From an uncultured Anaeromyxobacteraceae bacterium (GTDB taxonomy: Bacteria; Myxococcota_A; UBA9042; DTJE01): a DNA stretch of 54,629 bases. The first letter of the stretch is position 1. The number at the start of each line of letters is the position of its first letter. The stretch spans positions 33,308-87,936 of the forward strand of contig CAZFVA010000009.1 in the NCBI GenBank assembly GCA_964522105.1. The letters run 5' to 3'. Below are positions 11,980 through 41,109 of this stretch, in pieces. The notes beneath the pieces were generated by a model, which worked only from the letters and a program-made list of their open reading frames with translations, searched no databases and was not told the origin of the DNA. Made by a program: the position numbers and the translations under genes.

Positions 11980-12069
11980 CTGTAACCTCAGGTTCGAATA
12001 AAGCGCCGCCACGGGATTTTACAGAATAAGTGCCTTCTGTAACAAGTGTATATTGGGCTTATGGATGAT

Positions 12070-13857: not shown

Positions 13858-14058
13858 TCAAAATGCCTGTTCCGCCAGCGAACGGATTCTATCAGAGCCA
13901 TGTGAACGTACCAAGTTTATGGCAGCCTGAACAAACAAGGTTTTTCATGCAGGTTTTCCAAGATGTTACGCGTCTGCACGTTGATGGCTGTTTAAGGTCG
14001 CATTGGACATTAATTATGACTATGATATTGGGGAAACTGGTGTTGTGGTGATGTCCAG

Positions 14059-17164: not shown

Positions 17165-17246
17165 GAAGGTTTTATATCATGGCCCGGCATCCCGGGTCGA
17201 CGTTTACCTCCGTTCGTTTGTGAACACAGAATCACTCCAGACATTA

Positions 17247-17275
17247 TTGACCTTTGCAAGGTCGTCTGATACATT
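17247..17275 (+). promoter_or_regulatory. Putative sigma70 promoter for tadA-tRNA-Ser with an overlapping inverted repeat
   Basis: TTGACC-17 bp-TACATT; inverted repeat GACCTT-tgc-AAGGTC at 17249-17263. Confidence 0.55.
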
Positions 17276-17300
17276 CTGCCCGCCTTTCGGGGTTGGATCT

Positions 17301-22301: not shown

Positions 22302-22516
22302 CGGGTGATTATGGCAGGAGTAATGAAAAATTGGAGTACCTTCCCGTGATGTTTTACACTAGGTTCATGTGGCCGAAACCAAACATTTACATGATCTGTT
22401 GATAGTGTGTCTTGACACTGTAATTGCCGGTTCGGATAATCCACTGGAATCTGCCTGGTTGTTTCCTGATGTTTTCAGGGGAAGTTGGGCTGTCACAAAG
22501 GACTTTGAGGCTTCAT

Positions 22517-24628
22517 ATGACAAAGAACCGATGCGCCAGGCGACTGTTCGTCTGTGTCCTTTCTGCCCTGATGCTTTTCGTTTCCGGGACCGGATGTGAC
22601 AGTTCGGGTCAGGTCACAACGTTTTCCCAGATTGAAATCACGCCGAATACGACTACCGTTGATCTGTCGGGCACGATTGATTACACAGTGACAATCGTGA
22701 ATACAGGCGAGGGCCGCGATCTTACGATTAACGACATCGTTCTTGATTACACTCCGCTTGATGATGCCGAGATAGCTGCCGGTGCGGCGTTCACGCTGAT
22801 CAAGCAAACGCCCCTTCCCGCGACTATTGCCGCGAATGCCGGCGCCAGCGCTGAAGATATCGTCACATTTATTGTCAGATACAAGACGATTGGCGATCTG
22901 CAGGACAGAACGGCTTCAGTCACGATCCTTAATGATAATACCCAGAGCGAAGAGAAGCAGAATCTGAAGATCGACTTCAGTGGCCGCCGCTGCCGCCCGA
23001 TTCTTGACGTTGATGATAACGTTGACTTCGGTACCGTCGGTTTCGGTGCATCAAATGAAGTCGAGATTTCCCTGACCAACACCGGTTCATGCGCCCTTGA
23101 GATTGACTGGATTTCTGTTGAAGGCCCGAACACATTCTCGGTCACCGCCGGTGGTCAGGAATACATCGGTTCGCCTGATTATCAGCAGTATATTCTGCCG
23201 GAAGTTGTCGTCGTTGCCCCCGGTGATGACCTCAGATGGATGACGAAGTTTGTGCCCCTGAATGGCGAACCTTCAGCCGCTGATCTGGTAATTCATACGA
23301 ATAATCAAGAAGTTACTGATGGTATCTATAAAGTGGCGCTGCTTGGAAACGCCACCGGCCCGTTGCTGAGAGTTGTGCCTGCCGAGGCAGATTTCGGTGG
23401 CAAGCTTCTTGGGAAGGCAGCCGGAATGACACTGACGCTCAGTTCGGTCGGGACTTCCGACGTAAAGATTACCAGTCTGGTTCTTGGTGAAGGCACAAGC
23501 CCGGATTTCACGCTTGACGCCAGCGGCCTTGGTGTTATCCCGACAGCTGAAGCGCCATTGGTCCTTTCCCCCGGTTCAAACAGGGAAATCGTCCTGAAGT
23601 TCACGCCTGACGTTGAAAATCCCAGGGATGGCGATAACAAGCCGATCCCCGACACGGGAACTCTGGATATTGCCAGCAACGTGTTTGAAATGATTACCAA
23701 GGTCCCGATTTCCGGATATGGCGTTACCGTTGAGTGTCCGAAGCCGGTCATCGTTATTGAAGAAGGTGAAGTGGTTCAGCCGCAGACCGTTCTTCATATT
23801 CATGGTGATCAGAGCCAGAGCGGCAGTGCCGGCGGAACAATTATTTCGTATTCATGGACCGTTGATCAGCCGCCGGAAAACAAGTTCATCCTTCTGCCGA
23901 CCGCGTCGTCTGAAAACGTGACACATGAAGTCAACATCGGTGGAAAGTACACGTACTGTCTTGATGTTTGTGATGGTCAGTACTGCTCCAGCGACGCCCA
24001 GTGCGGCGGCGCAGTCTGCAAGGAAGTGCTGGTCGTTCCCGACAAGGCGATTCACTGCGAATTGACCTGGCATACACCGGGGGACCTTGACGAATTTGAT
24101 GAAGGCGAAGACGTCGGCACCGACATGGACCTTCATTTCACTCATCCGTTTGCGGCCATGAACGACCTGGATGGCGACGGCAAGCCCGATCCGTGGTTCC
24201 ATAATCCCTACGACTGCTTCTGGTTCCAGAAGACTCCGGAATGGGAAACTGCGAACCCGGATGGAAAGGACAATCCGTCCCTTGATCGTGATGATACCGA
24301 CGGCGCCGGACCTGAAAACGTCAACCTTGATACGCCGGTTTCCGGGCGCGTTTACCGGATTGGCGTTCACTACTGGGATGATCATGGACTTGGTGCCAGC
24401 TATCCCAGATTGAAGTGCTACATCTGGGGGCAGGCTGTTTTTGACCTCGACCTTCGGGTTACCGATACGAAGATGTATAAATGTGACATGTGGTACGCCG
24501 CCGAGATTTCCTGGCCCCAGCAGGTAGTTACGCAGATTAAGAACACTGACGGCACCTTGAAGATCACGCACAGCTACGAAGAACCTTCCTTCTCGGAAAT
24601 TGGCGGTGGCGGCTGTTCGGCCGAATAG
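22517..24628 (+). CDS. Lipoprotein with ASH/choice-of-anchor-D repeats, a PKD-like domain and a YfaP/DUF2135-like domain (paralogue of 9793-11979)
   Basis: Lipobox GTGC; NTG..DLTI, VDFG..NTGSCALEI and ADFG repeats; YSWTV.QP; ELTW..DMDLH..DCFW..SLDRDDTDGAGPEN..YRIGVHYW. ATG 22517 follows a GAGG RBS. Confidence 0.78.
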   Translation: MTKNRCARRLFVCVLSALMLFVSGTGCDSSGQVTTFSQIEITPNTTTVDLSGTIDYTVTIVNTGEGRDLTINDIVLDYTPLDDAEIAAGAAFTLIKQTPLPATIAANAGASAEDIVTFIVRYKTIGDLQDRTASVTILNDNTQSEEKQNLKIDFSGRRCRPILDVDDNVDFGTVGFGASNEVEISLTNTGSCALEIDWISVEGPNTFSVTAGGQEYIGSPDYQQYILPEVVVVAPGDDLRWMTKFVPLNGEPSAADLVIHTNNQEVTDGIYKVALLGNATGPLLRVVPAEADFGGKLLGKAAGMTLTLSSVGTSDVKITSLVLGEGTSPDFTLDASGLGVIPTAEAPLVLSPGSNREIVLKFTPDVENPRDGDNKPIPDTGTLDIASNVFEMITKVPISGYGVTVECPKPVIVIEEGEVVQPQTVLHIHGDQSQSGSAGGTIISYSWTVDQPPENKFILLPTASSENVTHEVNIGGKYTYCLDVCDGQYCSSDAQCGGAVCKEVLVVPDKAIHCELTWHTPGDLDEFDEGEDVGTDMDLHFTHPFAAMNDLDGDGKPDPWFHNPYDCFWFQKTPEWETANPDGKDNPSLDRDDTDGAGPENVNLDTPVSGRVYRIGVHYWDDHGLGASYPRLKCYIWGQAVFDLDLRVTDTKMYKCDMWYAAEISWPQQVVTQIKNTDGTLKITHSYEEPSFSEIGGGGCSAE

Positions 24629-24771
24629 TCCCTGCTGATTCGTTTTCAAGATTAGTTTTCACTTCAATGCAATCCGTGGTTTTAATTTGGACAGGAATCC
24701 ATAAAATACCCACACAGGGAACTTTGAAGAATTCTGTTCCTGTCGTCCTGGCGTTTACGGGAGACTTACTG

Positions 24772-27700
24772 ATGAATATGAAAGCAGGTTTGGTTTCCAG
24801 ACTTCTGGTTATCGGTGTCGTAGCGGTAATGGGGGCGCTGATTTCGTCGTGTAAAGACGGCGCTTCAATCGCCGAAAACCTGAACCTTGATTACAGTCCG
24901 GCCAACCTGAACTTTGGCTCGGTAAATATCGATTCTGAAAAGGTAATAACGGTAACGCTGACTCATATAGGTACGACGGGAAACATCGAAATCGGCGACA
25001 TCAAGACCGAAACACTTGGTGCCGAATTCACAATCGTCATGCCTGCAAAAACCGTCCTGGCGCCGACCGAATCAACGACGTTTGATGTCGTTTACAAGCC
25101 GAAAGACAGCGCCGTTGATGCCGGTTACGTCGTGATTTCACATAACGTCGCAACATCTGGATATCGCACAAGGATTGCCGTTTCGTCTTCCGGTCAGACA
25201 GCTACTCTGATTACCGAACCGAGCCCGATCGATTTCGGTGACGTTAATGCAGGTACGACCGGAACTCTTGATATTATTGTGAAGAACGTCGGTACGGCTC
25301 CGCTGAACCTTGAAAAGGCTTTCATGGACCCCGAAGGGTCTGATGCCTTCAAGATTGTTGCAATAGTTCCCCCGGAAGGCGATTCGCTGCCGGTTGAGCT
25401 TGCACCCGAGGCTTTTCTTGGCCTGACCCTTCAGTATGCCCCGCAGAGCGGCAAGACCGAGCAGACATTGCTGTTCATTACTGGTGTTGATGGCGAACAG
25501 TGGAGCTTTGATGTCTTTGCGAACGGCCTGGGACCCAAGCTGGCCATTGCCCCGGCTCAGATTGAACTGGGTGGCGTCGAAATTGGCGAAACAGGCAGGG
25601 CCATCGCGACAATTTCAAACATCGGCAATGATACTTTGAAGGTCACCAGTCTTGGTTTTTCGCCGGGAAGTGCGGCCGGTCTGACCATTGAAGGCGAGAC
25701 TTCATTCAACGTGGCCCCGGGCGCCAGCAAGGACTTCTACGTAAACTGGGCCGTTACTGAAGCAGTCAAATACACCGGTGCGGCGATCGGTTGGGTTTCA
25801 ATAGTAAGCAATGATGCTGCCAGTCCGGCCATCGTAAGTGTGTTCGGGCGCGTCAATTCCCCGCTGCTGGCCGTTATCCCTGAAGAACTGGACATGGGTT
25901 TCGGTGCGCAGGGCCTTGAGATCGTGAAAAGCGTAACTATTCGCAACGAAGGTTTCGGCGACCTGATTATCAAGGGTGAACCGACCTTCTTTGACACTTC
26001 CGAGTCGAAGTATGGTCCTGAATTCAGGATCCAGGTTGTTGGTGCGACGCCTGTCGGCGGCAATTACATTCTTGCCGGCGGTACCGGCATGGAAGCCCGG
26101 GTAAAGTTTACGAACAAGGGTCCTGCGACCGGCACTGTCACGTCGAAGCTTCGGATTACGTCTAATGATAAAGGCGTCGCCGACAGCGAAACGATTGTTC
26201 CGATTACGGTTTCGCGCGCAGGTACTGCCGAATGTGTTCCGCAGATTGCGCCTGCGGCAGTTGATTTCGGGCTGGTCCCGATGGGCTTCCGGAAAGAATT
26301 GCCGATAAGGATCGTTAATACCGGTGCCGGTTACTGCTCGTTCAAGGGTGCCATGGTTCAGGATTGCACTTCTTCCGGCGGCATGTTCGGTGGTTGTCCT
26401 GAACCGTTTACAGGGACGAAGTCGTCGAGATTCACAGTCGTTTCGCAGCCGCCGGTTGTCCAGAACGGGATCGTTCCCGGCGGGGCCGTCACCGTCTATG
26501 TCAGATTTGCGCCGCCGAATTCCAGCACGATGTTCGGTGATCTGACAGAATACACAGCACTTCTGTCGGCAAACATCTATGATGCACAGCTCAAGAAAAA
26601 CCTAATCATTCCGAAGGCTACCGGTACCGGTACGTGGAATTCAAATCTGAAGGGTACTACCGGTGTCGCGAATCTGGCCGTTCTGCCTTCCGACGTCAAG
26701 TTTGGTCTTGTGACGCTTGGTTGTGCTTCAAAGAAGTATCAGATATGTGCATACAACACGGGCGCCGCTCCGCTGCAGGTTACAGGCATCAAGCTTGACG
26801 GCTGTACTCCGGAATTCAAGCTTAAAGGCGTACCCACTCTGCCGCAGGCTATTTCTGCCGGTCATCCGCTGTGCTTTGGTGTGCAGTTTGTTCCGCAGGA
26901 TACGACGCAGGACTCGTGCATCCTGAAGGTATTAAGTAATGAACAGTCGGTTCCGGAACTGTTCGTCGGCCTCAGCGGCGAAGGGACCATTTTCAGTGAT
27001 CAAACCGACGAATTTACTCAGCTTTCCGGACAGATGGTCGATATCCTTTTCATTATTGATGATTCCGGTTCCATGGGTGATGACCAGCAGACGTTAATTG
27101 CTAACTTCGGTGAGTTCATCAAGTATGCCGATGTCTGGAATAACGACTATCACATTGGCGTTGTTTCGACCGGACTCAGTTATGACAATCTGATCGGTAA
27201 GCTGAATTTTGGTAATCCCAGAACGATGCCGCGGTACATTACACCTGGCCCGAATGCCAAGTCTCAGTTTGCTGATCTTGCGAATCTCGGAAGTGACGGT
27301 GACAACACAGAAGGTGCTCTGGCGAATGCTCAGGCTGCTCTTTCTGCGCCGCTGGTGACCGATACCGAGGTATCGTGCAGCAGTGATCTGGACTGTCAGA
27401 AGGATCCCAATATCTGTACCGGTACTGATTGCCCGTACAAGTGTCTTGAAGGTACGTGCGGCGGCTGGAATAAAGGCTTCCTGCGTGAAGACGCTCAGCT
27501 TGAAATCATCGCCCTGTCGGATGAAGAGGATCAGAGCAGCGGCGACCTTGGTTTCTACATCGATTTCTTCCGCTCGCTCAAAGGTTTCTATAATCAGAAC
27601 ATGATGCATTTTAACGCCATTTGCGGCACCGATGACGGCACGCTTGTTGATGAACAGGGCAATGCGTTCCCGGGCTGTACGGGGCCGACAGGTGCTGCCG

Positions 27701-28014
27701 CCCAGGAAGCTAAACGTTATATAGAAGCGGCTCAGGGAACGAACGGCAAGATTGGTTCCATCTGTGACCCGAACTATAAAACCGTTTTAAATGAAATCGG
27801 GTCAGTGGCGTTCGGCCTGAAGCAGCAGTTCTTCCTTTCCAGAATTGCCGATCCGAATTCCATCACGGTTAAAGTCAGGGGTGTTGACGCGCTTGACGGG
27901 TGGACTTACGAAGCCGAATCGAATTCAATAGTGTTCGATCCGTTAAGTTCGAACATGCCCCAGGAAGGCGACAAGATACTTGTTCATTACGAGACGCTGT
28001 GCCTTCCTGAATAG
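24772..28014 (+). CDS. Large lipoprotein with about 6 ASH/choice-of-anchor-D repeats and a C-terminal vWA (MIDAS) domain, CglB-like adhesin candidate
   Basis: Lipobox ISSC; repeated P..(L/I/V)(D/N/K)(F/M/L)G.V...N.G..L units; VDILFIIDDSGSM (DxSxS), YHIGVVST, FLREDA.L.II.LSDEEDQS and SICD motifs. Confidence 0.8.
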   Translation: MNMKAGLVSRLLVIGVVAVMGALISSCKDGASIAENLNLDYSPANLNFGSVNIDSEKVITVTLTHIGTTGNIEIGDIKTETLGAEFTIVMPAKTVLAPTESTTFDVVYKPKDSAVDAGYVVISHNVATSGYRTRIAVSSSGQTATLITEPSPIDFGDVNAGTTGTLDIIVKNVGTAPLNLEKAFMDPEGSDAFKIVAIVPPEGDSLPVELAPEAFLGLTLQYAPQSGKTEQTLLFITGVDGEQWSFDVFANGLGPKLAIAPAQIELGGVEIGETGRAIATISNIGNDTLKVTSLGFSPGSAAGLTIEGETSFNVAPGASKDFYVNWAVTEAVKYTGAAIGWVSIVSNDAASPAIVSVFGRVNSPLLAVIPEELDMGFGAQGLEIVKSVTIRNEGFGDLIIKGEPTFFDTSESKYGPEFRIQVVGATPVGGNYILAGGTGMEARVKFTNKGPATGTVTSKLRITSNDKGVADSETIVPITVSRAGTAECVPQIAPAAVDFGLVPMGFRKELPIRIVNTGAGYCSFKGAMVQDCTSSGGMFGGCPEPFTGTKSSRFTVVSQPPVVQNGIVPGGAVTVYVRFAPPNSSTMFGDLTEYTALLSANIYDAQLKKNLIIPKATGTGTWNSNLKGTTGVANLAVLPSDVKFGLVTLGCASKKYQICAYNTGAAPLQVTGIKLDGCTPEFKLKGVPTLPQAISAGHPLCFGVQFVPQDTTQDSCILKVLSNEQSVPELFVGLSGEGTIFSDQTDEFTQLSGQMVDILFIIDDSGSMGDDQQTLIANFGEFIKYADVWNNDYHIGVVSTGLSYDNLIGKLNFGNPRTMPRYITPGPNAKSQFADLANLGSDGDNTEGALANAQAALSAPLVTDTEVSCSSDLDCQKDPNICTGTDCPYKCLEGTCGGWNKGFLREDAQLEIIALSDEEDQSSGDLGFYIDFFRSLKGFYNQNMMHFNAICGTDDGTLVDEQGNAFPGCTGPTGAAAQEAKRYIEAAQGTNGKIGSICDPNYKTVLNEIGSVAFGLKQQFFLSRIADPNSITVKVRGVDALDGWTYEAESNSIVFDPLSSNMPQEGDKILVHYETLCLPE

Positions 28015-28071
28015 GGGGATGCCGTGTCTTTTGAAACAAAAATGGTCTGAAACCATTAAGGAGATTCCTAA

Positions 28072-30198
28072 ATGAAAATTGGCCGTGTGATGGCTGTAGT
28101 TACGACGTCGGCAGTAGTTCTTATCAGTATTCTGGCCGGTGTTGTCGGTTGCAAGAGTGGCACCATCGGTACCGCACCGTCCCTGTACGTCGGTCCTTCC
28201 GGGGATATTGACGGGGCCGCCGAGCGTGTGGCGAACAACGGAACCGTTTACTTTGCCGAAGGCGGCGGAACGATGACGCTGGTCCTGGGTAACGTCGGTG
28301 ACGCTTTGCTGAAGATTACAAGTATCGAACTTGTTACGCAGAACTCAGATATCACTGTGTCACCGCTGTTGACCGATGTCACTTTCCCGCTTGAAGTACA
28401 GCCGAACGATTACAAGCAGGTCCACGAGACTGTTTTCACGATGACGGCTTACTACACTCCGGATGCCGATCGTGACATTTCGCCGACGACCATCAAGGTC
28501 ACGACGAACGACTACCAGAATCAGGACGGAATCTTCACTTTCAACGTTCAACCAAAAGAAAAGACGGCTGAAATCAAGGTTACGCCGAATAACGCCATAT
28601 TCCTTGGCGCCACTTCGTCGTCGCCGGATCCTGTTGAATTTACGATTGATAACGTTGGTGATGCGGCGCTGGCCCTGGCCGCTGTCAGGTTTAATCCCCC
28701 GACGACTGCCTATTCCATTACCGCCGGTTACATTCGTGAAAACCTGATGATCGACCCGTATCCGTATGGCACCGACAACGGCGCCGTCAATTTGACCATC
28801 ACGTATCGCCCGGTTAATCCGCCGGATCAGACCGATTTCGAGATCCTGTGGGGCTCCAAGATCGACACCGGTGTTGAATGTACCAATACTCCGACGTGTC
28901 AGAACAGCGAAAAACTTTGCCCGGATAAGACAAAAGTCTGCCCGTACACCTGCTTCAACGGTATGTGCGGCTGCTTGATGTCTTCTGACTGTGCGGCGTA
29001 TTTCTGTGAAAACCCGGCTGATTGCGAATACCGCTGTCTGACTTCGGTCTGTCGTATTCCAGAAGTGACGAAGGTCCCCCTGCGCGGCGAAGCTCAGGCC
29101 GGTAACCTTGAAATCACTTATGGTGATCAGGCTGACGGATGTGTTGATTTTACGACGGTCACGGTCCCCGGAAATTCATGTACGAAGCGGCTCAGCCTTG
29201 AAAACGCCGGTCCCGGTTCGGTCATTTTAAGCAAGCCGACCGTCAAGGTTGCAGGCGGCCTTGACAGCCCCTACACCGTAAAGTGGTACAAACTTGGCGC
29301 CACACAGGACCCGCTCGACGAATGCGGCGCAGTCACAGGCGAAGAGATCTCTGATTCCAGATATACACTGACCCCCGACAATTCACCGATCACTGTTGCA
29401 GTTACATACACGGCACCGTCGATCAATGGCGTCAGCGGCGACCTTGAAGTTCCGTACAGTTCACCGTTTGCCGGTGAAGAAATTGTCAGACTGTGTGGTG
29501 GCGTCCGCAAAGGCGAACTGGCGATTGCGCCGCTTCCCGAAAGCATCAGAATGACCCTTTACGCAGCCCCCGGTTCGACAGCCGAAAAGTCTGTCGTCGT
29601 TATGAACAAGGGTAATCTTGAGCTTCTGATCACCAGCATCAACGTGGAATCGGCCAATGTGGACGACCCCGATGCGTTCAGCATCCTTGAAGATGTCGCG
29701 GCCGGGTTCACACTTGCCGAAGGGGAAGTCAGGGCATTTACGGTCAGCTTCACCGGCGATCATGACGGTGGAACGACGGTTAACGGCTTTGTGAACGTGA
29801 ATTACATGGATCCGCTGATCGACATGGAAGTCAACCAGAAGGTCAACGTCGCCGGTTTCAACAGTTTTGAGGGCGTGACCCTGCCGGTCGCAGAGCCTGG
29901 TGAAGCGTCAGAATATACAGGTGTCAAAGTTGGCGATTCCGTCGTCCTTGATGCAAGCGGCAGCGTTGCCGGAACTTATGATGTCCCGTTGAATTCCGGT
30001 TATATCTGGTTCGTCTATGACAAGCCCGATGCCAGCCGCGTTTTCCTGAATACCGGTGGCGGTCAGCCCCAGATTACGGTCATTCCTGACGTCGCCGGAA
30101 CGTATGAATTCAGACTGATTGTTTACTCGGTAGACACTGACAGCACACAGGCCTATTTCAGTTCAGAAGGCAGCATCAGGTTTGATGTCACAAATTAG
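28072..30198 (+). CDS. Lipoprotein with ASH/Ig-like repeats, a Cys-rich insert and a C-terminal PKD-like domain
   Basis: AGGAG RBS; lipobox VVGC; NVGDALLKI, NVGDAALAL and NKGNLELLI repeats; VVLDASGS..YIW..PDVAGTYEFRLIV. Confidence 0.75.
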   Translation: MKIGRVMAVVTTSAVVLISILAGVVGCKSGTIGTAPSLYVGPSGDIDGAAERVANNGTVYFAEGGGTMTLVLGNVGDALLKITSIELVTQNSDITVSPLLTDVTFPLEVQPNDYKQVHETVFTMTAYYTPDADRDISPTTIKVTTNDYQNQDGIFTFNVQPKEKTAEIKVTPNNAIFLGATSSSPDPVEFTIDNVGDAALALAAVRFNPPTTAYSITAGYIRENLMIDPYPYGTDNGAVNLTITYRPVNPPDQTDFEILWGSKIDTGVECTNTPTCQNSEKLCPDKTKVCPYTCFNGMCGCLMSSDCAAYFCENPADCEYRCLTSVCRIPEVTKVPLRGEAQAGNLEITYGDQADGCVDFTTVTVPGNSCTKRLSLENAGPGSVILSKPTVKVAGGLDSPYTVKWYKLGATQDPLDECGAVTGEEISDSRYTLTPDNSPITVAVTYTAPSINGVSGDLEVPYSSPFAGEEIVRLCGGVRKGELAIAPLPESIRMTLYAAPGSTAEKSVVVMNKGNLELLITSINVESANVDDPDAFSILEDVAAGFTLAEGEVRAFTVSFTGDHDGGTTVNGFVNVNYMDPLIDMEVNQKVNVAGFNSFEGVTLPVAEPGEASEYTGVKVGDSVVLDASGSVAGTYDVPLNSGYIWFVYDKPDASRVFLNTGGGQPQITVIPDVAGTYEFRLIVYSVDTDSTQAYFSSEGSIRFDVTN

Positions 30199-30348
30199 TT
30201 CGTCTTTCACATCCTTCCAAAACAAATAAAAGCGCATTTTCCTTGTATGTAACTGGCTTGAAGTGCCATCTTCCCTTGCCTGAAATACATCAATCTGATA
30301 AACCTATGCGGACGGCATTTTTCCGTGCTCCCGGGACATTAGGAGTGT

Positions 30349-33300: not shown

Positions 33301-36300
33301 TGGGAAGAGTTGCAGAGTGTTGACGAGGCCCGCGCTGTATTCCATGGCGTCCTTGAGCTGGACGATTCGAATGAAACGGCGCTTGATGCCCTTGAAACGA
33401 TTTACGAAGAGCTTCAGAACCACAGTGAACTGCTGAAGGTTTACCGCCGTCGCTGCGAAGTTTCGCCGTACCCCGGTGAAAAGATTGCTTACGCGTTCAA
33501 GATGGCCGGTGAACTGTCCGATCACCTTGAAGACATTGAAGGCGCAATCAAGGCAGTCCGCAGTGTTCTGGATATCGACCCCGAGTATTCGGCGGCCTAC
33601 CGTCAGCTTGACAGCCTGTATGTCCGTTCGGAAAGGTGGTTCGACCTGGCCGATGTGCTTGAAAGACGCATTGAACTGGCCGATGACGCCCAGGACCGCA
33701 CGTGGCTCCGCCTGCGTATGGCCGAAACACGCGAAATGAAGCTTGAAGACGTCGCCGGCGCGGTTGATGTCTACAAGGTGATTCTGGACAGCGATCCGTC
33801 GAATGCCGAGGCGCTCAGTCAGTTGGAAAGACTTTTCGGAAATCCGGAAGTCAAGGTCATGGTCGCCCCGATTCTGCTGCCTGCCTACAGGGCCAGCAGG
33901 GACAATGAAAAGCTTGTCACCGTGTATGACGTTCTGGCCGGGGCTGCCGATGACATCGACACACGCCTTGAACATTACGCCACGATTGCTGACATTCTTG
34001 AAAACAGCATCAAGGACACGACCAGGGCGTTTGAATATCGGGCGAAGGCATTCAGGGCCGCCCCGGAACGGGCCGGACTGGTTGATGAACTGCTTCGTAT
34101 CGGACAGGTTCGTGACGCCGTTGATGAAGCGGTGTTTGTGCTGGCCGAAAAGGTCTTTGATATTGAAGACGAAGAACGTCGTCGCGAGACCCACAGAACG
34201 ATTGCTAAGGTTTGCAGGGACGCCAACGTTGACCGTGAACTGTCAAAGCGCCACTTCAATGCCGTGCTTGCGCTTGATCCGGCCGACCTTGATGCCGTTG
34301 ATTCCCTGATCGCCATGTACGAAGCGGACAGCGAAGTCGACAGCCTGGTCGCCCTGATTATCCGCAAGTCTGATCTTGTTGTCAGTTCAGAAGAACGGGC
34401 CGCGCTGCTGCTGTGGGCCGGTGACATCTATGCCGGAGTGCTGGAAAAGGACGAAGACGCCATCGTCGCGTTCAACGGCGTTCTGGAGATCGACGGCCAC
34501 AACATGAAGGCCATCGAAGCCCTTGAAGGTCTTTATGAAAAGGCCGGAATGTGGGAAGAACTGGTCGATGTTCTTGGTCGCAAGGCCGACTACACCGACG
34601 GCGATGTCCGCGTCATCGCGCTGAAGAAGAAAGGTCTTGTCCAGCATGAAAAGATGGGTAACACCGTCGAAGCAATCGAGACGTTCCTTCAGGTCATGGC
34701 TATCAATACCGCCGATGTTGACGGAATCCGCACACTGGACCGCCTGTATGCCGCTTCTGAAGACTGGTGGAATCTGTACTCGACCCTTGAAAACCTGTAC
34801 GCCCTTGTCCAGGGTGAAGAGCGCCTGACAGTCCAGTTCCGCATGGGCAAACTGCTTGAGCGTGAAATGGGTGACCCGACAAAGGCCGTCCAGATTTATG
34901 AAAACCTTCTGGAAGAATTCACGGACAACAAGGACGCCGTCGAGGCTCTTGAAGGCATGGTTCGTGCCGACAATGCGGCGGAAGAGGCGTTCAAGGTGCT
35001 GGCCCCCACGCTTTCCGAGCGTGGCGAGTGGATGCGCCTGTACATTGTTTATGAAGTAATTACGGAAAAGGAAGAAGACATTGCCAGAAAGGTCAGCAAC
35101 CTTCTGACGATGGGCGAAATTGCCGAACAGCGCATGCAGGAACCTCTGCGTGGATTTGAATGTTACGGCAGGGCCTTTACGACTGACCCGCTGAATCCGG
35201 AAGCCCGCGAGCGTATCGAATCGCTGGCGACAGCCCACGATATGTGGGACAACGTCCCGGGATTGCTGCTTGAAGGCGCCAAGTCGGTCGAGGGCACTCC
35301 TGATGCTCTGGCCCTGCGTCTGCGTGCCGCGACCATCCTGCGTGACAGCGTCGGCGACCTTGATGCGTCAGCCCTTGCGTTTGAAAGCATCATTGAAGAC
35401 ATCCCGGACAATATGTCCGCGCTGCCGGCCCTTGATGCCATTTACACGAAGCTGGAAAACTGGAAGGACCTCTCCCGGATCCTGCGCGCCGAATACGATG
35501 CTGTTCAGGCGTTCGGGCAGAAGGTCGATTTCCTGCTGCGTTCAGCCGTCGTGTCTGAAGAAAAGCTGGACAATCCTGCCGCCGCCTTGGAAGCCCGTCA
35601 GGAAGTCCTGTACCTGTCACCGAATAATCCTGACGCCGTGGCCGGGATCCGGGCCATGTTCAACGCCGGTAAATTCCGCGCGCAAGCCCTTGAAATCCTT
35701 GAACCAATCTATCTTGATACCGCTGCATACCAGGACCTGGCAACAGTCTACGAAGCCGTTCTGGCCGATGTCGAAGACGCCGGTGAACGTCGCGGAGTCA
35801 TGACGAAGCTGGCCGAAGTCTGGGAAAAGAAGCTTGTCGATCTGACAGCGGCGATGACCTGGTACGGCCGCGCCTTTGAACTTGATCCGGCCGATGAATC
35901 GCTGCTTATGCAGGTCGAAATGCTGGCCGGTACATCTGGAAACTTCAAGCTGCTGCTGGACATTCTTCTGGCCGCCGCCACTGCCTGCGAAGACGAAGAA
36001 CGCAAGGTCTATCTGTGGCACAAGGCTCTGGAAACGGCCCGCGACAGACTGTTCGACATCGCGAAGGCAGAAGATATCGGCAAGTGGATTGTCGGGGTCT
36101 GCAAGACCGACCGCACAGCGTTGTCAGCTCTTGACGCCATGTACGAATCCCAGGGCCGCTGGCAGGATCTGCTTGGTATCCTTACTGACGAAGTAGCCGC
36201 GTCAGACTTTGACGACGAAAAGACCGGCTTCCTGCTTCGTATCGGCGCCCTGCAGAGGGACCGTCTTGATAATCTGGAAGGCGCTGTCGCCGCATACACG

Positions 36301-39300
36301 CAGATTGTGAAATCTGACGAAATGCACCGCGAGGCCCTTACCGCACTGAGCGTTCTGCACGAGCTGCGCGCCGAGTGGGAAGACCTGTTCAACGTGTTGT
36401 CGCGCCTGGCAGATGTGGCCCAGACCGGCGACGAAAGGGCAGTTATTCAGCGCAAGCTGGCCGTACTGGCCGAAGAAAAGCTGGAACGCACAGAAACGGC
36501 GCTCGGCCTGTGGGACGAAGTCTCCAGAACCGATCCCAATGATGTCGCGGCCCTTCGCAATCTTGAAAGACTTTATGCCGCCAGGGAAGACTGGAACGCC
36601 TTTGTTGATGCGTGCGAGCGTGAACTGCCGCTGATGGCTGACGATCCGGCCCGTTCCGGTGACCTGCTGCGCAGCATTGCCCGTGCCGCTGAAAATGAAC
36701 TTGGTGACACATTCCAGGCTCAGAACGCGTGGCGCCGAATCCTGGACACGACTGCCGATGACATGGATGCGCTTCAGGCTCTGCGTCGTCTGTACCGCGA
36801 ATCCGGCGATATCGAAGCCCTTTCGCGTATCCTGGTTTCCATCGTGGACAGCGGACTGGTTGTCGGTGACGAGCGTAAAGCTCTTTTCCAGGAACTTGCC
36901 GAACTGCTGACCAACGAACTTCCGCGTTTTGACGAGGCCATCAACTGGTGGAACAAGGTCGTCGAGATGGCGCCGGAAGACACCGATGCCCTTACAAACC
37001 TGGAAAGACTTTACGAAGACACCGGGCGCTTTGAAGAATGTGTCCGTGTTACGAAGCGGCTTGTTGAACTGACGAAAGGCAAGGGCAAGAAGGCAGATAT
37101 GCTTTCCCGCGCCGCTTCGATGCAGGCCGACCAGATGAAGGACCTTGTTGGCGCAGCCATAACCCTGCAGACAGTTGTCGGGATTAACGGCGGCAACATG
37201 GAAGTGTCCGAAAGGCTTCAGGATCTGTACACCAGACTTGAAGACTGGGACAGCCTTGCAGACGTTCTGCTGGCGCGTGACGGCCTGTTGAAGGACCTTG
37301 ACGACAGGGTCAACAACTTCTGTGAAGTGGCCAGGGTTTTTGAAAGTCGCAAGGGCGAAAAGGAATCGGCGTTCCTGATCTATACGAAGGCCGCTGAAGT
37401 TAATCCGGCTGACGAAAACACGTTCATCGAGCTGTGGCGCCTGGCTCAGGAAATCCAGAACTGGGGCGATTACGTTGACATGCTGTCCGCTTTTGTTGAC
37501 GGCATGGGCGATGATTCTCGTCAGGAACACCTGCTCCGCTTCGGTGAAGTGCTTTCAACGCATACCGACAGAACGGCCGACGCAGTTGGCTATTATGAAA
37601 AGGTCATTGCTGACTGGCCCGAAAACGAAGTCGCGCTGGAGGCATTGACCCGCCTGTACACGCAGGTTGAAAGCTACGACAAGCTGGTCACTGTCCTTGA
37701 AGCTCGCGTGGAGCTGAGCCCCGACTATCTGGAAAAGGTCCAGTTGCAGTTCCTGGCAGCCGAAGTCCTTGAAGGCAAGGTTGGTGATCCGGCCAGGGCC
37801 GTTGTGTCCTACGCCAAGGTTCTGGACTATGACGAAGGTCATGTGGCAACTCTGGACGCCCTGATCAGGCTTTACACCGCCCTTCAGAACTGGGAAAAAC
37901 TGGTCGAAGCCCTTGATCGCAAGGCAGTTAATGTGCCTGCCGATGAAGTGGCTGTTCGTTACCAGATGGGCCTCGTTCTTGAAGAAAACGTCGGTGACCC
38001 GGAAAGGGCCATCAAGGCTTACGAGCAGGTTCTTGAGCTGTCCCCGTCACATTCTGAATGTATTGACAGACTGCAGTCGCTTTACGGCGGACTGGAAGAC
38101 TGGGCCGGACTTGCTGATGTGTTCCAGCGTCTTCTGGACATGTCGAACGAAGTTCCTGACCGGATTCTGTTCTGCAACAGGCTTGCAATCCTTTATCAGG
38201 ATGCTCTTGGTGACAAGCGCAAGGCCCTTGATTACTGGCAGCAGGTCCTGGACATGGACGCCAACGACGACGAAGTCTTCGAAACGGCTGTCCGTCTGCT
38301 TACCGATCTGGAAGACTGGGGCGAACTGATCAACCTGTATGAAAGCAGAATTGGCAGGGTAGATGACACTGAAGTTCGCATCTTCACACTGACAAGGCTT
38401 GCGGACGTTTATGAAAAGCGTCTGGAAGACATCAATTCCGCAGTTTCGTGTTACCAGCGCATGCTGGAATTCCGCCCGGACCATACTGTCGGCTACTCTG
38501 AACTGGTCAGAATGTTCAGCGCGATGGAGTCATGGGAAGACGTCGTTGATACGTACGTCAAGTGGAAGGAACACGTTGACTCGGACGTCAGAATGGTCGA
38601 ACTGATGTTGCTGGCGGCTGATGTCGTCAGGGACAAGCTGGAAAATCCCGAACGCGCAATTGACATGCTGCGGGGTATTCTGGTCGTCGATCCTGTTAAC
38701 CGCGAAGCGTCCAGCCGACTGATTGCCATTTATGGCGACCTTGAAGACTGGGAAAAGGTTGCCGCCGTCCATCTGGGCATGGAAAGCCATGTTCATTCGG
38801 ATGACGACAAGGCGCACCTGCGGTCTGCCGCCGGTGACGTGTACATGCACAAACTGAAGGACCGCCTGCACGCGATCGAGCACTACGAAAAGGCGCTGGA
38901 TTACAATCCGCGTCTGTTTGACGTGGCTCAGTCACTTGCCGGTGCTTATGTTGCCGCTGCCCGCTGGGAAAAGGCCGAGCCGCTGCTTGACATGCTGGCG
39001 TCCGACGCCCGCGTGATGGCCGATCCCGACCGCTCCGCTGAAGTCCATTTCGAGATGGGTCTGTGCGGCGAAAAGCTGTTCGATTTCGAAAAGGCTTTCC
39101 GCGAATACCAGATTGCCATAAAGGTGCGCCCGAATCACGTCAGGACCGTTCTTGGTCTTGGTCGTCTGTATCAGCGCAAGGAACTGTGGCAGCTTGCCAA
39201 GGATAACCTGGTCAAGGCGATGGAACTGGGCGGCGCAGATATGCCGACCGAAGATCGCGTCGAGATTGGCTATGCACTTGGTGAAATCAACCTGGCCCTT

Positions 39301-41109
39301 GGTGATCTGAAGGACGCCGTCGTTCAGCTTGATAAGGTTCTGGAGCTGGCCCCCAGTAATGAAAGGGCCGTCGAGCTGCAGATCGCGATTGCTGAACGCC
39401 GTGAAGACTGGCCGGCCGTCATCCGGTACAAGCAGGCGCGTGCAGACGTGCGTCAGGACCCATACGAAAGATTCAGCGTCCTGCTGGAAGTTGGCGACAT
39501 CTATAAAGAAAAGATGGGCAACATCCACGGGGCCACGGCTGCCTACAAGGAAGCTCTGGACATCGACCCGGGTGCCAAGGTCGCCCTGATGCGCCTGTTC
39601 AACCTGTACCTCGAAAGTGGTGCGATTGAAGATGCGCTGTATATCCTTGAAAGCCTGGCGATGGCGGAAGACAGTCCTGAACAGCGCGCCAAGATCTATG
39701 TCCAGATGGCCGCCCTTTATCAGGAAAAGCTTTCTGACGATGGTCGCGCAATCGAATACTTGAATACCGCACTGGATTCCGACCCGAACCGTCTTGAAGC
39801 GTTCCGGGCGATTGACGAAATCCTTACGCACAACAAGGACTGGGCCGGTCAGGCTGAAGCCTATCGGCGCATGCTTGAAAGGCTGAAGGGCGGCAATCAG
39901 AAGGAACTGGAATACAGACTGTACGCCAACCTGGGTGAAATTTACCGGTCGCGCCTGAAGGAAATGGATTATGCGGTCTCCGCGTACTCGATGGCCGTTC
40001 AGATTAAGCCGGAAGAAAAGCGGACCCACGAAATTCTGGCTCAGCTCTTTGAAGTGTCGGGCGACCAGCTTGACAAGGCCATTGAATCGCATCGTCAGAT
40101 CGTCAGCCTCGGCCCGATTGCCAAGGATGCCGCGCCTTCTTACAAGGCGATGCGCCGTTTATTCCTGGACATGAAGGAATTCGACAAGGCCTTCGTTATT
40201 TCTTCAATCATGCGTGCGATGGACATTGCTGATGAAGAAGAAAAGAAGTTCTACGAAGACAACATGGAACCTGGAGTGCCGTGGTTCAAGGGCACCATCG
40301 ACCCGCTGCGCTGGGAATCGCACCTGATGGCCAGGAACGAAAACGTGCTGCTGGGCAGAACGCTGCAGGTCCTTTATCAGGGCATCGGGCAGCACCTGGG
40401 TGTCAAGGACATCAAGGATCTCGGCCTGCGCAAGAAGCCCGAAATGGACCTGGACCAGAAGCTGGTCTTTGTGAACATCTACAAGGCCGTCAACAAGGCT
40501 CTGGGGCCGCTGCCGCACAAAGTGTACCGCGATGACAACCCGACCGGCCTGAAGCTGGAATTCCTGTCACCGCCGGCACTGATTGTGGGTTCGGATATGC
40601 TGACCGGACATGATGAGTATGATGTCGCGTTCCAGATTGGACGCCAGCTTACTTATCTGCACCCGATGCATTTCCTGGCTTCTGTCAAAAACCAGACGGA
40701 ACTGAAGATTTTCATGGCCGCAGTCCTGAAGTTCTGTAACCCGAACATGCAGCTTTCAGCTGGTGCTGATGTTGTAATGGAACTGTCCAGAACGATCGAT
40801 CGCAAGATGTCGCAGCAGCAGAAAAACCAGATCAGCAAGCTGGTCGAGGATCTGTTGAAGCGCTACCCGATGAGCATCGAGGACATGTTCAAGGACTTCT
40901 TCAGAAGCATGGAAATTTCAGGTCTGCGCGGCGGTGCGCTTGTTGCGTGTAACGTCCCGGCAACCTTGAACTTCCTGCGTGGTGAAGATATGGGATTCTC
41001 GGGCATGTCGCAGCGTGAAAGGATTGAAGAAGTCCTGCGCTTCGTCGTTTCCGAAGACCACTTCATCCTGCGCCGCGCTCTGGGCATCAATCTGGAATCA
41101 CGGGCGTAG
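30349..41109 (+). CDS. Giant (3586 aa) cytoplasmic TPR/helical-repeat protein, AgmK/GltI-like
   Basis: AGGAG RBS; uninterrupted 10.7-kb ORF; dozens of A..Y..VL..DP....AL..L..LY....W..L units; no signal peptide; ends LRF.VSE.HF.LR..LG as in myxobacterial giant TPR proteins. Confidence 0.85.
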   Translation: MMEVTEFMVELEVNPNDNVAFDKAIEDALTQGGVEGLELFLAEVMESLGKGPVADTFLKKLDTLFRKERNTDKGRVLAWTAGLVAWKILDDVVKAEFYMRALGEEPASDVDTWLEFYRVFYASRGNWLRLEQFMAEAGQKAGKSELEIKRSLARTAAQFDNPSKELSYWQEVAKLDAADEEASNQLEKLYTKLQRWPSLAELYKNRLTALPEDAVKEKVEALYFMLDIYAEKMHAEPKVLSTYQMILDIDPSNVEAMDSLLDRYEKAGRWPDYAKVLDRKIEQTADIDARIGLMEKKADLMESRFANAMEALKSYESILEIAPGRKDILDKLKDLYEKRRDFENLIRIRRTEAENLTDIPEKIALYMELAIMATDRLRKFPVAIELWEKVLGLDDANDEALKNLEGLYERTKNTESLAQVLRRRIDLAPGAAEQVQLLEKLAQLFGTKLEDTVGAMETWRMILDVDPTHDRAKRELRTRYLSEHKWEELEWFLRKYGTVDELARTLESQVNSIEKNTEKRDILFKLAAIWRDEVDQPQRAVKNIEGVLAIYGDDLRAANELIDLYRGLADWRKLPKVYEIAIGGTVNVEERQALRIEAAEVIETQLHNVKDAFFLYLSAFQEDMLNSGLQGQLERLAGPSDNWDVYVSVLEMAVGIMDETDRKIATWLRIGEIYNENLGDAEAAQAAFKNALELDNSNRRAISALEALYRKLNRDEDLIGILQMRLSLVVDADERKAVRFEIAGALYERMANVDDAVSTYTDILEEDPFEWRAYAEFAELLLTEKRFAELRDLLNKQVEALFSQGDINAGALADLYCRIGLLTAGIDGKGDHALDSFAMALDYVPGHAETVEILEDMLGSESLRPRLVDLLKGPFEAARRYADLADLIEIELVIRGDSIDTIELLWKVEGLYAGAAADDNKRFRALSRILMVTPDDTKAWDNLESVTRAIGAWRSLAELYLVAVEGIEAPDSRVALRLRLARILWEELQSVDEARAVFHGVLELDDSNETALDALETIYEELQNHSELLKVYRRRCEVSPYPGEKIAYAFKMAGELSDHLEDIEGAIKAVRSVLDIDPEYSAAYRQLDSLYVRSERWFDLADVLERRIELADDAQDRTWLRLRMAETREMKLEDVAGAVDVYKVILDSDPSNAEALSQLERLFGNPEVKVMVAPILLPAYRASRDNEKLVTVYDVLAGAADDIDTRLEHYATIADILENSIKDTTRAFEYRAKAFRAAPERAGLVDELLRIGQVRDAVDEAVFVLAEKVFDIEDEERRRETHRTIAKVCRDANVDRELSKRHFNAVLALDPADLDAVDSLIAMYEADSEVDSLVALIIRKSDLVVSSEERAALLLWAGDIYAGVLEKDEDAIVAFNGVLEIDGHNMKAIEALEGLYEKAGMWEELVDVLGRKADYTDGDVRVIALKKKGLVQHEKMGNTVEAIETFLQVMAINTADVDGIRTLDRLYAASEDWWNLYSTLENLYALVQGEERLTVQFRMGKLLEREMGDPTKAVQIYENLLEEFTDNKDAVEALEGMVRADNAAEEAFKVLAPTLSERGEWMRLYIVYEVITEKEEDIARKVSNLLTMGEIAEQRMQEPLRGFECYGRAFTTDPLNPEARERIESLATAHDMWDNVPGLLLEGAKSVEGTPDALALRLRAATILRDSVGDLDASALAFESIIEDIPDNMSALPALDAIYTKLENWKDLSRILRAEYDAVQAFGQKVDFLLRSAVVSEEKLDNPAAALEARQEVLYLSPNNPDAVAGIRAMFNAGKFRAQALEILEPIYLDTAAYQDLATVYEAVLADVEDAGERRGVMTKLAEVWEKKLVDLTAAMTWYGRAFELDPADESLLMQVEMLAGTSGNFKLLLDILLAAATACEDEERKVYLWHKALETARDRLFDIAKAEDIGKWIVGVCKTDRTALSALDAMYESQGRWQDLLGILTDEVAASDFDDEKTGFLLRIGALQRDRLDNLEGAVAAYTQIVKSDEMHREALTALSVLHELRAEWEDLFNVLSRLADVAQTGDERAVIQRKLAVLAEEKLERTETALGLWDEVSRTDPNDVAALRNLERLYAAREDWNAFVDACERELPLMADDPARSGDLLRSIARAAENELGDTFQAQNAWRRILDTTADDMDALQALRRLYRESGDIEALSRILVSIVDSGLVVGDERKALFQELAELLTNELPRFDEAINWWNKVVEMAPEDTDALTNLERLYEDTGRFEECVRVTKRLVELTKGKGKKADMLSRAASMQADQMKDLVGAAITLQTVVGINGGNMEVSERLQDLYTRLEDWDSLADVLLARDGLLKDLDDRVNNFCEVARVFESRKGEKESAFLIYTKAAEVNPADENTFIELWRLAQEIQNWGDYVDMLSAFVDGMGDDSRQEHLLRFGEVLSTHTDRTADAVGYYEKVIADWPENEVALEALTRLYTQVESYDKLVTVLEARVELSPDYLEKVQLQFLAAEVLEGKVGDPARAVVSYAKVLDYDEGHVATLDALIRLYTALQNWEKLVEALDRKAVNVPADEVAVRYQMGLVLEENVGDPERAIKAYEQVLELSPSHSECIDRLQSLYGGLEDWAGLADVFQRLLDMSNEVPDRILFCNRLAILYQDALGDKRKALDYWQQVLDMDANDDEVFETAVRLLTDLEDWGELINLYESRIGRVDDTEVRIFTLTRLADVYEKRLEDINSAVSCYQRMLEFRPDHTVGYSELVRMFSAMESWEDVVDTYVKWKEHVDSDVRMVELMLLAADVVRDKLENPERAIDMLRGILVVDPVNREASSRLIAIYGDLEDWEKVAAVHLGMESHVHSDDDKAHLRSAAGDVYMHKLKDRLHAIEHYEKALDYNPRLFDVAQSLAGAYVAAARWEKAEPLLDMLASDARVMADPDRSAEVHFEMGLCGEKLFDFEKAFREYQIAIKVRPNHVRTVLGLGRLYQRKELWQLAKDNLVKAMELGGADMPTEDRVEIGYALGEINLALGDLKDAVVQLDKVLELAPSNERAVELQIAIAERREDWPAVIRYKQARADVRQDPYERFSVLLEVGDIYKEKMGNIHGATAAYKEALDIDPGAKVALMRLFNLYLESGAIEDALYILESLAMAEDSPEQRAKIYVQMAALYQEKLSDDGRAIEYLNTALDSDPNRLEAFRAIDEILTHNKDWAGQAEAYRRMLERLKGGNQKELEYRLYANLGEIYRSRLKEMDYAVSAYSMAVQIKPEEKRTHEILAQLFEVSGDQLDKAIESHRQIVSLGPIAKDAAPSYKAMRRLFLDMKEFDKAFVISSIMRAMDIADEEEKKFYEDNMEPGVPWFKGTIDPLRWESHLMARNENVLLGRTLQVLYQGIGQHLGVKDIKDLGLRKKPEMDLDQKLVFVNIYKAVNKALGPLPHKVYRDDNPTGLKLEFLSPPALIVGSDMLTGHDEYDVAFQIGRQLTYLHPMHFLASVKNQTELKIFMAAVLKFCNPNMQLSAGADVVMELSRTIDRKMSQQQKNQISKLVEDLLKRYPMSIEDMFKDFFRSMEISGLRGGALVACNVPATLNFLRGEDMGFSGMSQRERIEEVLRFVVSEDHFILRRALGINLESRA

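Follow-up and report, generated by a model that had tools for sequence, protein, structure and literature searches.

Three genes for predicted lipoproteins, followed on the same strand by the gene for a giant repeat protein, raise the question of whether the four encode one machine or whether two systems stand side by side. They lie in a 54,629-nucleotide stretch of DNA (the window) from an uncultured Myxococcota bacterium, positions 33,308 to 87,936 of contig CAZFVA010000009.1 (C9:33308-87936), in an assembly of 3.3 Mb that is 92% complete. Near-identical DNA is present in sequencing runs labelled freshwater or lake-water metagenome. The first-pass annotation of the window had described four plus-strand genes separated by gaps of 143, 57 and 150 bp, and had read them as an undescribed adhesion, gliding or prey-contact apparatus with integrin-like adhesins. 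The coordinates and gaps of the four co-oriented open reading frames (ORFs) hold. The genes, here called LP1, LP2, LP3 and gltI, are as follows (TPR, tetratricopeptide repeat; Ig, immunoglobulin; MIDAS, metal ion-dependent adhesion site).

22517..24628, plus strand: LP1, a 703-residue lipoprotein; Ig-like stalk, a weak PKD-like domain in the middle, and at the C-terminus a head of predicted TerD fold (about residues 510-703).
24772..28014, plus strand: LP2, a 1080-residue lipoprotein with five choice-of-anchor-D stretches followed by a predicted VWA/MIDAS head that has a Cys-rich insert and flanking beta-strands (residues 735-1080).
28072..30198, plus strand: LP3, a 708-residue lipoprotein; Ig-like domains, a middle segment rich in Cys, and a C-terminal beta domain without an assigned family.
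30352..41109, plus strand: putative gltI/agmK orthologue, encoding a predicted cytoplasmic TPR scaffold of about 3585 residues with a non-TPR C-terminal domain (about residues 3260-3586).

On balance we take it to be probable that the region is a composite, in which the known scaffold gene gltI adjoins an undescribed, adhesin-like LP1-LP2-LP3 cassette. The open frame of gltI opens at GTG 30349, and its start is most likely ATG 30352, because AGGAG lies 6 nt upstream and both are kept in all five aligned relatives.

The product of the 3586-residue frame matches 21 Pfam families at E <= 0.01, most of them TPR, and contains no hydrophobic segment or export signal, which bears out its earlier description as a giant cytoplasmic repeat protein. 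The last 330 residues or so form a non-TPR domain that has no Pfam match at E <= 1; a profile search of PDB sequences with this domain returned 22 rows, all at E >= 0.15, which we read as chance. The C-terminal region retrieved 43 proteins of 1972-6276 residues, most of them of 3580-3620 residues, with a distant set of 3770-3820 residues labelled Polyangiaceae. The database names of ten distant giant proteins are generic ('tetratricopeptide repeat protein'), and AgmK occurs in none of them. A profile of the C-terminal domain (alignment A1) matched 66 of the 121 genomes sampled across the phylum for presence profiles, mostly at the ends of frames of 3300-4200 residues, and one such GltI-type giant was found per lineage. 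The profile also matched the end of a 4121-residue frame in Archangium minus and, on the Myxococcus sp. Y35 chromosome, that of a frame of 4142 residues (E 3.6e-21 and 8.4e-8).

The Y35 frame lies between gltG/gltE and gltJ. Its neighbours score 909 bits against an NCBIfam cut-off of 450 (GltJ), 1091 against 650 (GltG), 745 against 225 (GltE) and 176 against 70 (CglE), and the frame and its flanks agree with the G1 cluster of Luciano 2011 (PMC3169522). Table 1 of that paper gives gltD as 1191 residues with TPRs, gltE as 471 residues with TPRs, gltF as 89 residues, gltG as 640 residues with FHA and TonB domains, gltI as 4132 residues with TPRs and gltJ as 674 residues. Residues 557-3583 of the window protein align collinearly with residues 1090-4137 of the Y35 frame, at 23.6% identity (452 bits, E 1.3e-130). 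In a control, another TPR giant encoded by the window genome (3536 residues) gave 104 bits against the Y35 frame, in scattered pieces. This second giant, encoded at contig C5:78016-88626 on the minus strand, shows no collinearity with GltI and lacks a C-terminal domain of GltI type; some 30 kb separate its gene from a Glt-like cluster at C5:118800-124900.

A tree of the C-terminal domain was built from 32 sequences, leaving out one assembled row (G028) in which the stretch included a stop codon. Support was 100/100 for the grouping of the window protein with a relative from its own family, and 98/96 for its grouping with the class's giants. Proteins of intermediate size (1500-2300 residues) with the same domain nested inside the lineage clades, as if they were local offshoots derived repeatedly from giants. 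Such mid-sized proteins occur in most relatives. One of them, a 1521-residue TPR protein, is encoded at contig C4:16431-20997, behind VWA genes resembling BatA, BatB and BatD. A 1749-residue frame of Y35 matches the domain profile better (5e-34) than GltI does, and the 1521-residue protein is one row of that profile.

Because the alignment is collinear, the C-terminal domain is shared, the Y35 frame is flanked by glt genes and the domain tree agrees, we file the giant protein as GltI/AgmK. The earlier annotation had noted a likeness to AgmK/GltI; judged by its sequence, the protein is itself a member of that family and not an analogue of it, and its role in gliding is presumed. GltI of M. xanthus (MXAN_4863) is likewise a TPR giant that has no export signal and carries a homologous non-TPR C-terminal domain, described in PMC11761067 as large and helical. 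The window protein differs in length, with 3586 residues against 4132-4142, the N-terminal end being shorter by about 550. Its gene also lies outside any gltD-J cluster and not beside gltJ, behind the lipoprotein cassette.

The usual context of gltI was examined in the flanks of six giant genes from six genomes of five other families, where 56 of 115 ORFs were scanned. At five of the six loci (G126, G131, G042, G045 and G120) the giant gene directly follows a series resembling gltC, gltD, gltE, gltF and gltG: a protein of about 550 residues, a TPR protein of 1085-1232 residues, a TPR protein of 427-505 residues, mostly a short ORF, an FHA protein of 594-719 residues (TonB_C in some) and a third TPR protein, of about 300 residues. 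The sizes and domains agree with Table 1 of Luciano 2011 (PMC3169522). At the sixth locus (G057) the giant gene is followed by a protein with a zinc ribbon and a GYF domain that scores 99.4 bits against the GltJ model NF033761. The window genome has its own series on contig C1, with GltC-like (286.6 bits), GltD-like, GltE-like (109 bits), small, GltG-like (237.8 bits) and 300-residue TPR genes; these scores are all under the equivalog cut-offs, as expected for a distant lineage. No giant gene lies behind the gltC-D-E-F-G series and 300-residue TPR gene on C1. We read the changed context as a relocation because five of the six loci in other families keep the usual one: gltI appears to have left its place after gltC-D-E-F-G, and now lies 150 bp behind LP3.

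Elsewhere in the class, gltI orthologues from six genomes of other families have housekeeping flanks, with a gene for an RsmI-type methylase beside gltI in three; such a methylase gene is also found in three of the glt-linked loci. Five of these orthologues are full-length and collinear with the window protein at 30-36% identity. In the sixth (G028, contig C29) the alignment covers residues 2-2169 and one in-frame TAG was reported; an error of sequencing, a pseudogene or a split gene would each explain this. The window genome contains two further Glt-like clusters, on C5 and C8. At C24:8740-12642 a gene for a GltG-like protein (131 bits, AgmX/PglI domain at the C-terminus) precedes one TolQ-like gene and two of TolR type, all of which score below the Tol/Exb equivalog cut-offs; this module is a candidate AglRQS-type motor.

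The other part of the region is the cassette. LP1, LP2 and LP3 each begin with an N-terminal signal peptide that runs up to a lipobox Cys and is retained by the orthologues, so that the earlier recognition of three lipoproteins stands. The ASH-like stalks attributed to all three are likewise borne out, by Pfam matches to ASH (1.7e-22 in LP2) and to HYDIN/VesB-like Ig domains, and by NCBIfam matches to choice-of-anchor D of 130 bits in LP2 (five stretches), 54.6 bits in LP1 and 21.9 bits in LP3.

The head of LP2 (residues 735-1080) was modelled with AlphaFold2 at a mean confidence (pLDDT) of 89.9. Foldseek placed integrin beta subunits on top (9p95_B, 7.7e-10; 3fcs_B, 1.2e-7). VIA-align gave Z scores of 14-15 to many VWA domains, tied across VWA types. 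Integrin beta chains cover residues 2-346 of the model (3ze2_D: Z 14.0, 249 residues, root mean square deviation (rmsd) 4.3 A), whereas alpha-I domains cover residues 19-284. The model is thus consistent with a beta-sandwich that holds a VWA domain, the arrangement seen in the integrin beta headpiece, with this coverage as the sole ground for calling it beta-like. In an alignment of 21 sequences of the head, D29, S31 and S33 (DxSxS) are invariant in all, as are several acidic and Cys positions. The vWA-MIDAS head proposed earlier is therefore upheld by both fold and motif.

By sequence LP2 is only faintly like named families. It scores 36 bits (E 4.2e-9, model positions 56-218) against NF052240, the Bdellovibrio MIDAS adhesin model, whose cut-off is 700, and 27.7 bits (E 5.6e-7, a local match at positions 634-876) against NF033765, the CglD model, whose cut-off is 400. 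Pfam VWA matched at E 0.07, and a profile search of PDB sequences with the head gave 0 matches. CglB had been suggested as the comparison adhesin; CglD and the Bdellovibrio MIDAS adhesins are nearer to LP2, both weakly. CglD (MXAN_0962), like LP2, is a lipoprotein of about 1100 residues with a C-terminal VWA domain and MIDAS. It is described as beta-integrin-like, its residues 644-1111 matching integrin beta3 (3FCS_B, the chain matched by LP2 as well), with COMP-like calcium-binding repeats and EGF-like modules in the N-terminal part (10.1101/2023.10.19.562135). In contrast, the stalk of LP2 is of the Ig-like choice-of-anchor-D type, and a Pfam and NCBIfam scan of its residues 1-730 revealed neither COMP-like repeats nor EGF-like modules. 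The Bdellovibrio adhesins (Bd0875, PMC11003981) share with LP2 a MIDAS VWA head and an origin in predatory or gliding 'delta-proteobacterial' lineages; they differ in that their model, of 378 positions, has no long Ig stalk, and no companions of LP1 or LP3 type were met for them in the literature consulted.

The head of LP1 (residues 490-703; 17 sequences) gave an AlphaFold2 model with a pLDDT of 85.5. Against this model VIA-align ranked TerD structures highest, with Z scores of 10.0 (2qz7_B, rmsd 3.3 A over 137 residues) and 9.3 (2kxt) and the next row at 4.9; Foldseek found 2qng at 1.3e-4. As modelled, the LP1 head has a TerD-type fold that superposes on the calcium-binding beta-sandwich of the TerD family (PDB 2QZ7, 2KXT). 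The assignment is made at the level of fold and does not extend to membership of the sequence family: TerD was not matched in Pfam at E <= 5, and a profile search of PDB sequences gave 0 matches. TerD itself is a cytoplasmic stress protein, whereas the LP1 head would form the tip of an exported lipoprotein. Solved members of the fold bind calcium, and the 2kxt entry is titled for its calcium-binding properties. The LP1 head contains a conserved loop, acidic and rich in Gly (LDRDDTDGAGPE), and by analogy it probably binds calcium too.

Two other head assignments of the first-pass annotation fared less well. The YfaP-like character given to LP1 comes down to one 37-residue motif. PF09906 (DUF2135) matched a single member of the 17 in the LP1 family, at E 0.057, and hhalign of the LP1 head with E. 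coli YfaP gave a probability of 18.5% (E 0.0013) over 37 columns (LDxDxTxGxGPE...GRxY), whereas the modelled fold is TerD-like. A PKD-like head had been proposed for LP3. No PKD family was found by Pfam in its C-terminal 232 residues (477-708) at E <= 1; in a protein atlas the clusters nearest to this domain are PKD-annotated at 0.82-0.84, a lead at most. A weak PKD-like match, below cut-off, sits in the middle of LP1.

Conservation of gene order was examined in a family sample made up of the window genome (G000) and 18 relatives. In 11 of the 19 genomes (G000, G001, G003, G004, G006, G007, G013, G015, G016, G017 and G018) a single contig carries LP2 and, equally oriented and at the same spacing of about 13 kb, the C-terminal end of gltI, while six others (G002, G008, G010, G011, G012 and G014) were too fragmented to be scored. 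In all four family genomes that were fetched (G013, G006, G018 and G007) the full order was confirmed, from a divergent gene for a membrane protein with TPRs through LP1, LP2 and LP3 to gltI, and the genes after gltI differ. The adjacency persists across at least six genera, at protein identities of 47-59%. The divergent neighbour is the following.

20604..22301, minus strand: polytopic membrane protein of 565 residues with C-terminal TPRs (the Pfam matches are to TPR families alone, at residues 432-518) and many hydrophobic segments.

This gene adjoins LP1 in the four fetched genomes and in G009; it is absent beside LP1 in a further relative, G005, and in the fetched loci outside the family.

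Outside the family, LP2 loci were compared in nine genomes. Six carry LP1-LP2-LP3 without gltI (G025, G021, G029, G022, G028 and G024), one has LP2-LP3 (G019), and two have LP2 alone with these queries (G020 and G027); 114 ORFs flanking the trio loci were compared by BLAST clustering. Three genomes of another family (G126, G131 and G117) have the order LP1-LP1-LP2, followed by a choice-of-anchor-D protein of 508-537 residues. Among the best 80 public LP2-type loci, 78 had a long match to the head. Directly upstream, 22 of these show an LP1-type head; LP3 is detectable downstream in 18, and 11 have both. Many of the remaining loci are extra copies of LP2. Loci with LP1-LP2 include metagenome-assembled genomes labelled Bradymonadia, Bradymonadales and Nannocystaceae.

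Cultured genera also have an LP2 homologue. Myxococcus, Corallococcus, Pyxidicoccus and Archangium each have a single full-length one, of about 1000 residues and 24-28% identity; in none of the four genera was LP1 or LP3 detected next to it. For choice-of-anchor D the copy from Myxococcus scores 186 bits and that from Archangium 200; the CglD model gives 46.6 bits with the Myxococcus copy and no match at E <= 1e-10 with the Archangium copy. In the window genome, contig C3:55891-61573 carries two tandem paralogues of LP2 (41% and 38% identity to it), the second without most of the stalk, and no LP1 or LP3 was detected beside them. The first-pass annotation had proposed conservation of gene order across Myxococcota as a check on its proposal. 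As judged from these genomes, the four-gene order is limited to one family, that of the window genome, to which the join between cassette and gltI appears to be confined; elsewhere the trio is found with no gltI behind it.

Two promoter-like elements were found in the region.

22412..22440, plus strand: P1, a promoter-like site, TTGACA-17 nt-GATAAT, agreeing with the consensus at 11 of 12 positions; putative function.
30275..30304, plus strand: P2, CTTG-N14-ATCTG-N-TAWA in the gap between LP3 and gltI, kept in five of five aligned genomes; putative promoter.

P1 is the best promoter-like site in the region and lies 77 nt before LP1; its hexamers and spacing are invariant in all five aligned family genomes, from four genera. 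Read as a promoter, P2 consists of TTGCCT, a 17-nt spacer ending in TG-N (an extended -10) and TAAACC, which is TATACC in three of the four aligned relatives and TATATC in G006; AGGAG and ATG follow after about 40 nt. Across 176 fetched loci the exact P2 pattern occurs once each in eight, always at the junction of LP3 and gltI, and it is absent upstream of gltI outside the family. No terminator-like site was found in any of the three gaps.

Two RNA libraries from one sample (X8 and X9) yielded contigs that match the window at 99-100% identity and fill 30 and 29, respectively, of the 30 bins between 21800 and 41500. One of these contigs, 27593-28299, spans the gap between LP2 and LP3, and another begins at 30318, just downstream of P2. 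Two further RNA runs (X19 and X20) gave contigs 95-99% identical over 15 and 17 of the 30 bins; these probably come from a relative, and were left out of the transcript boundaries. As far as these signals go, LP1 to LP3 probably form one unit transcribed from P1, and gltI probably has its own start, with read-through possible. The earlier annotation had named separate transcripts as grounds for giving up a single apparatus. Given the conserved P2 such transcripts may well exist, yet the gaps contain no terminator-like site.

A second Glt-type gene lies in the window, in a group of three genes that are possibly related to the cluster and include a paralogue of LP1.

12070..13857, minus strand: GltJ-like protein with a zinc ribbon, a GYF domain (Pfam GYF_2, 2.3e-13), a linker, one membrane helix (residues 330-358) and a periplasmic domain; 30.6 bits against NF033761, cut-off 450.
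9793..12012, minus strand: LP1 paralogue directly downstream of the GltJ-like gene, a 739-residue lipoprotein 31.5% identical to LP1.
8687..9796, minus strand: Cys-rich lipoprotein of 369 residues, overlapping the LP1 paralogue by 4 bp.

The GltJ-like gene and the LP1 paralogue are co-oriented with a gap of 57 bp, and the order of the three genes recurs in G013 and G009 and, as judged by coordinates, in G003. At 14059-15678 on the plus strand, in divergent orientation to the GltJ-like gene, lies a gene for a 539-residue Cys-rich lipoprotein with no family match, which is kept beside it in G013 and G009. A copy of P2 with two mismatches occurs at 13888-13915 on the minus strand, 31-58 nt upstream of the GltJ-like gene; 1.17 such copies would be expected by chance in the window. 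A similar copy lies upstream of the orthologue in G009 and none does in G013. P2 as a regulatory site common to the GltJ-like gene was rejected as too weak, the count in the window being within chance and G013 having no copy.

The genes around the cluster are otherwise housekeeping genes (urocanase, Memo, RlmL and an MFS transporter), and downstream of gltI in the window lies a convergent gene without an assigned family. Further away, an ORF of the MafB19-like or cytidine deaminase type at 16884-17750 (plus strand) overlaps the 5' end of a convergent AMP-binding ORF at 15707-17164 (minus strand) by about 280 bp; its true start is probably later, because the deaminase domain begins at residue 142.

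If the region is a composite, its two units would work as follows. LP1-LP2-LP3 would be an old cassette of three exported, lipid-anchored proteins behind the sigma-70-type P1, their Ig rods holding the metal-dependent VWA head of LP2, the TerD-type head of LP1 and the beta domain of LP3 away from the membrane. The three would act together as cation-dependent adhesins of the cell envelope, a proposal made because their adjacency is conserved across distant lineages, which is the sole evidence for joint action. GltI would be the cytoplasmic scaffold of the Agl-Glt gliding machine (the bacterial focal adhesion). Because GltI is cytoplasmic and the lipoproteins are exported, direct contact between them is not expected. 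Their adjacency may reflect co-regulation of adhesins with the gliding scaffold, a possibility we take seriously while leaning slightly away from it; this would parallel the coupling of CglB and CglD to Agl-Glt in M. xanthus. We infer that LP1, LP2 and LP3 are exposed at the surface, and rods of at least five Ig domains topped by integrin-like MIDAS heads are typical of surface adhesins. The three could instead be periplasmic, anchored at the inner membrane or at the inner leaflet of the outer membrane, where they would span or organise the periplasm, for example as partners of periplasmic Glt proteins; this seems to us quite improbable. It would explain why LP2 and LP3 of the window bear Lys after the lipid-bearing Cys, a residue that marks inner-membrane lipoproteins in M. 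xanthus, where eight of 12 have Lys there (PMC3222651). The same source assigned MXAN_0962 to the inner-membrane fraction. MXAN_0962 is CglD, however, which is surface-localised according to 10.1101/2023.10.19.562135, and among orthologues of the window lipoproteins the residue after Cys is Gly, Ser, Ala, Gln, Thr, Asp or Lys. As it varies in this way, the residue was dropped as a guide to location.

The composite reading has also to be set against two accounts that differ in how closely they tie the cassette to gltI, and against a stronger version of itself. In the closest tie, one operon would encode a single, undescribed machine for adhesion or gliding, with the lipoproteins and the giant as its obligate parts. 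All four genes point the same way, the gaps between them are short and contain no terminator-like site, RNA-library contigs cover all four, and the order is found in 11 of 19 family genomes although the genes after gltI differ. We nevertheless hold this account to be highly improbable: the giant protein belongs to a known machine, it has no export signal and cannot touch exported proteins directly, and the promoter-like P2 is conserved within the set. A series of further observations counts against a functional tie between cassette and scaffold. Two family genomes break the set: G009 has LP1-LP3-gltI with LP2 missing from the cluster, and G005, which is 95% complete, has urocanase-LP1-LP2-LP3 and then 6 kb without gltI, the GltI C-terminal domain being matched nowhere in its genome. 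No LP gene was found within 8-10 kb of any of the six gltI orthologues outside the family, and gltI follows LP2 in three of the 78 public loci, all from close relatives (head identity at least 56%). Presence profiles of the two parts disagree: of the 10 genomes of family f7, all 10 have the LP2 head and 0 the GltI domain, while f18, f25 and f14 have the GltI domain in 11 of 11, 6 of 6 and 9 of 9 genomes and the LP2 head in 0 of 11, 0 of 6 and 1 of 9. The conserved P2 suggests a separate gltI transcript. Among the RNA contigs listed (89 further records) none spans the gap between LP3 and gltI, and in these data transcript ends are unreliable and carry-over of DNA is possible. The adjacency of the GltJ-like gene and the LP1 paralogue sits in a block of wider synteny, and no GYF gene lies on the same contig as an LP1-type head in the 10 class genomes compared outside the family.

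Most of these points would suit neutral neighbours, gltI having landed behind the cassette by an ancestral rearrangement and the cassette serving, for example, cohesion, prey contact, matrix binding or envelope architecture. So would the large paralogous family of LP1-type heads, with 3-11 copies in 31 of 31 class genomes, and the extra, partnerless copies of LP2, which fit a general adhesin repertoire. We regard a neutral origin as rather unlikely, since the adjacency has survived across the genera sampled while the genes after gltI changed, a GltJ-like gene lies beside an LP1 paralogue in the same window, and the gliding adhesins CglB and CglD of Myxococcus are also VWA lipoproteins (10.1101/2023.10.19.562135; PMC9946355). 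The stronger version makes LP1-LP2-LP3 a heteromeric, integrin-like adhesin complex, made up of a MIDAS subunit resembling beta-integrin, a calcium-binding subunit of TerD fold and a third, also stalked, subunit. In uncultured freshwater Myxococcota this complex would be the end at which Agl-Glt-type machines couple to substratum or prey, and would fill the role of CglB and CglD, gltI and the gltJ-like gene having moved beside the LP genes to tie expression together; we offer it as a speculation that is unlikely to hold in full. Within the composite reading, what survives of the apparatus first proposed is the integrin-like MIDAS head and the stalks; the single four-part system does not, gltI being found elsewhere alone or in glt clusters.

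GltI and beta-integrin-like lipoproteins are already known. A literature search, which was not exhaustive, turned up no published account of LP1-LP2(-LP3) as a conserved cassette, of a TerD-fold head carried by a lipoprotein, of an LP2 family apart from CglD and beside it in Myxococcaceae (species sampled in part), or of a family in which gltI has moved behind the cassette. Gliding by focal adhesions is understood almost only from Myxococcus xanthus, where the adhesins CglB and CglD are recent discoveries. The locus described here points to inheritance of GltI across much of the phylum, in several gene contexts, and to a distinct, stalked lipoprotein of beta-integrin-like type, conserved in distant Myxococcota and usually paired with a lipoprotein of predicted TerD fold. 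In one freshwater family the cassette and gltI lie side by side, and the LP2 homologue in cultured genera makes the idea testable. Even if the cassette proves not to be an adhesin for gliding or predation, it would still be a widespread, unnamed adhesin cassette; if it is one, the set of prokaryotic integrin-like systems would widen.

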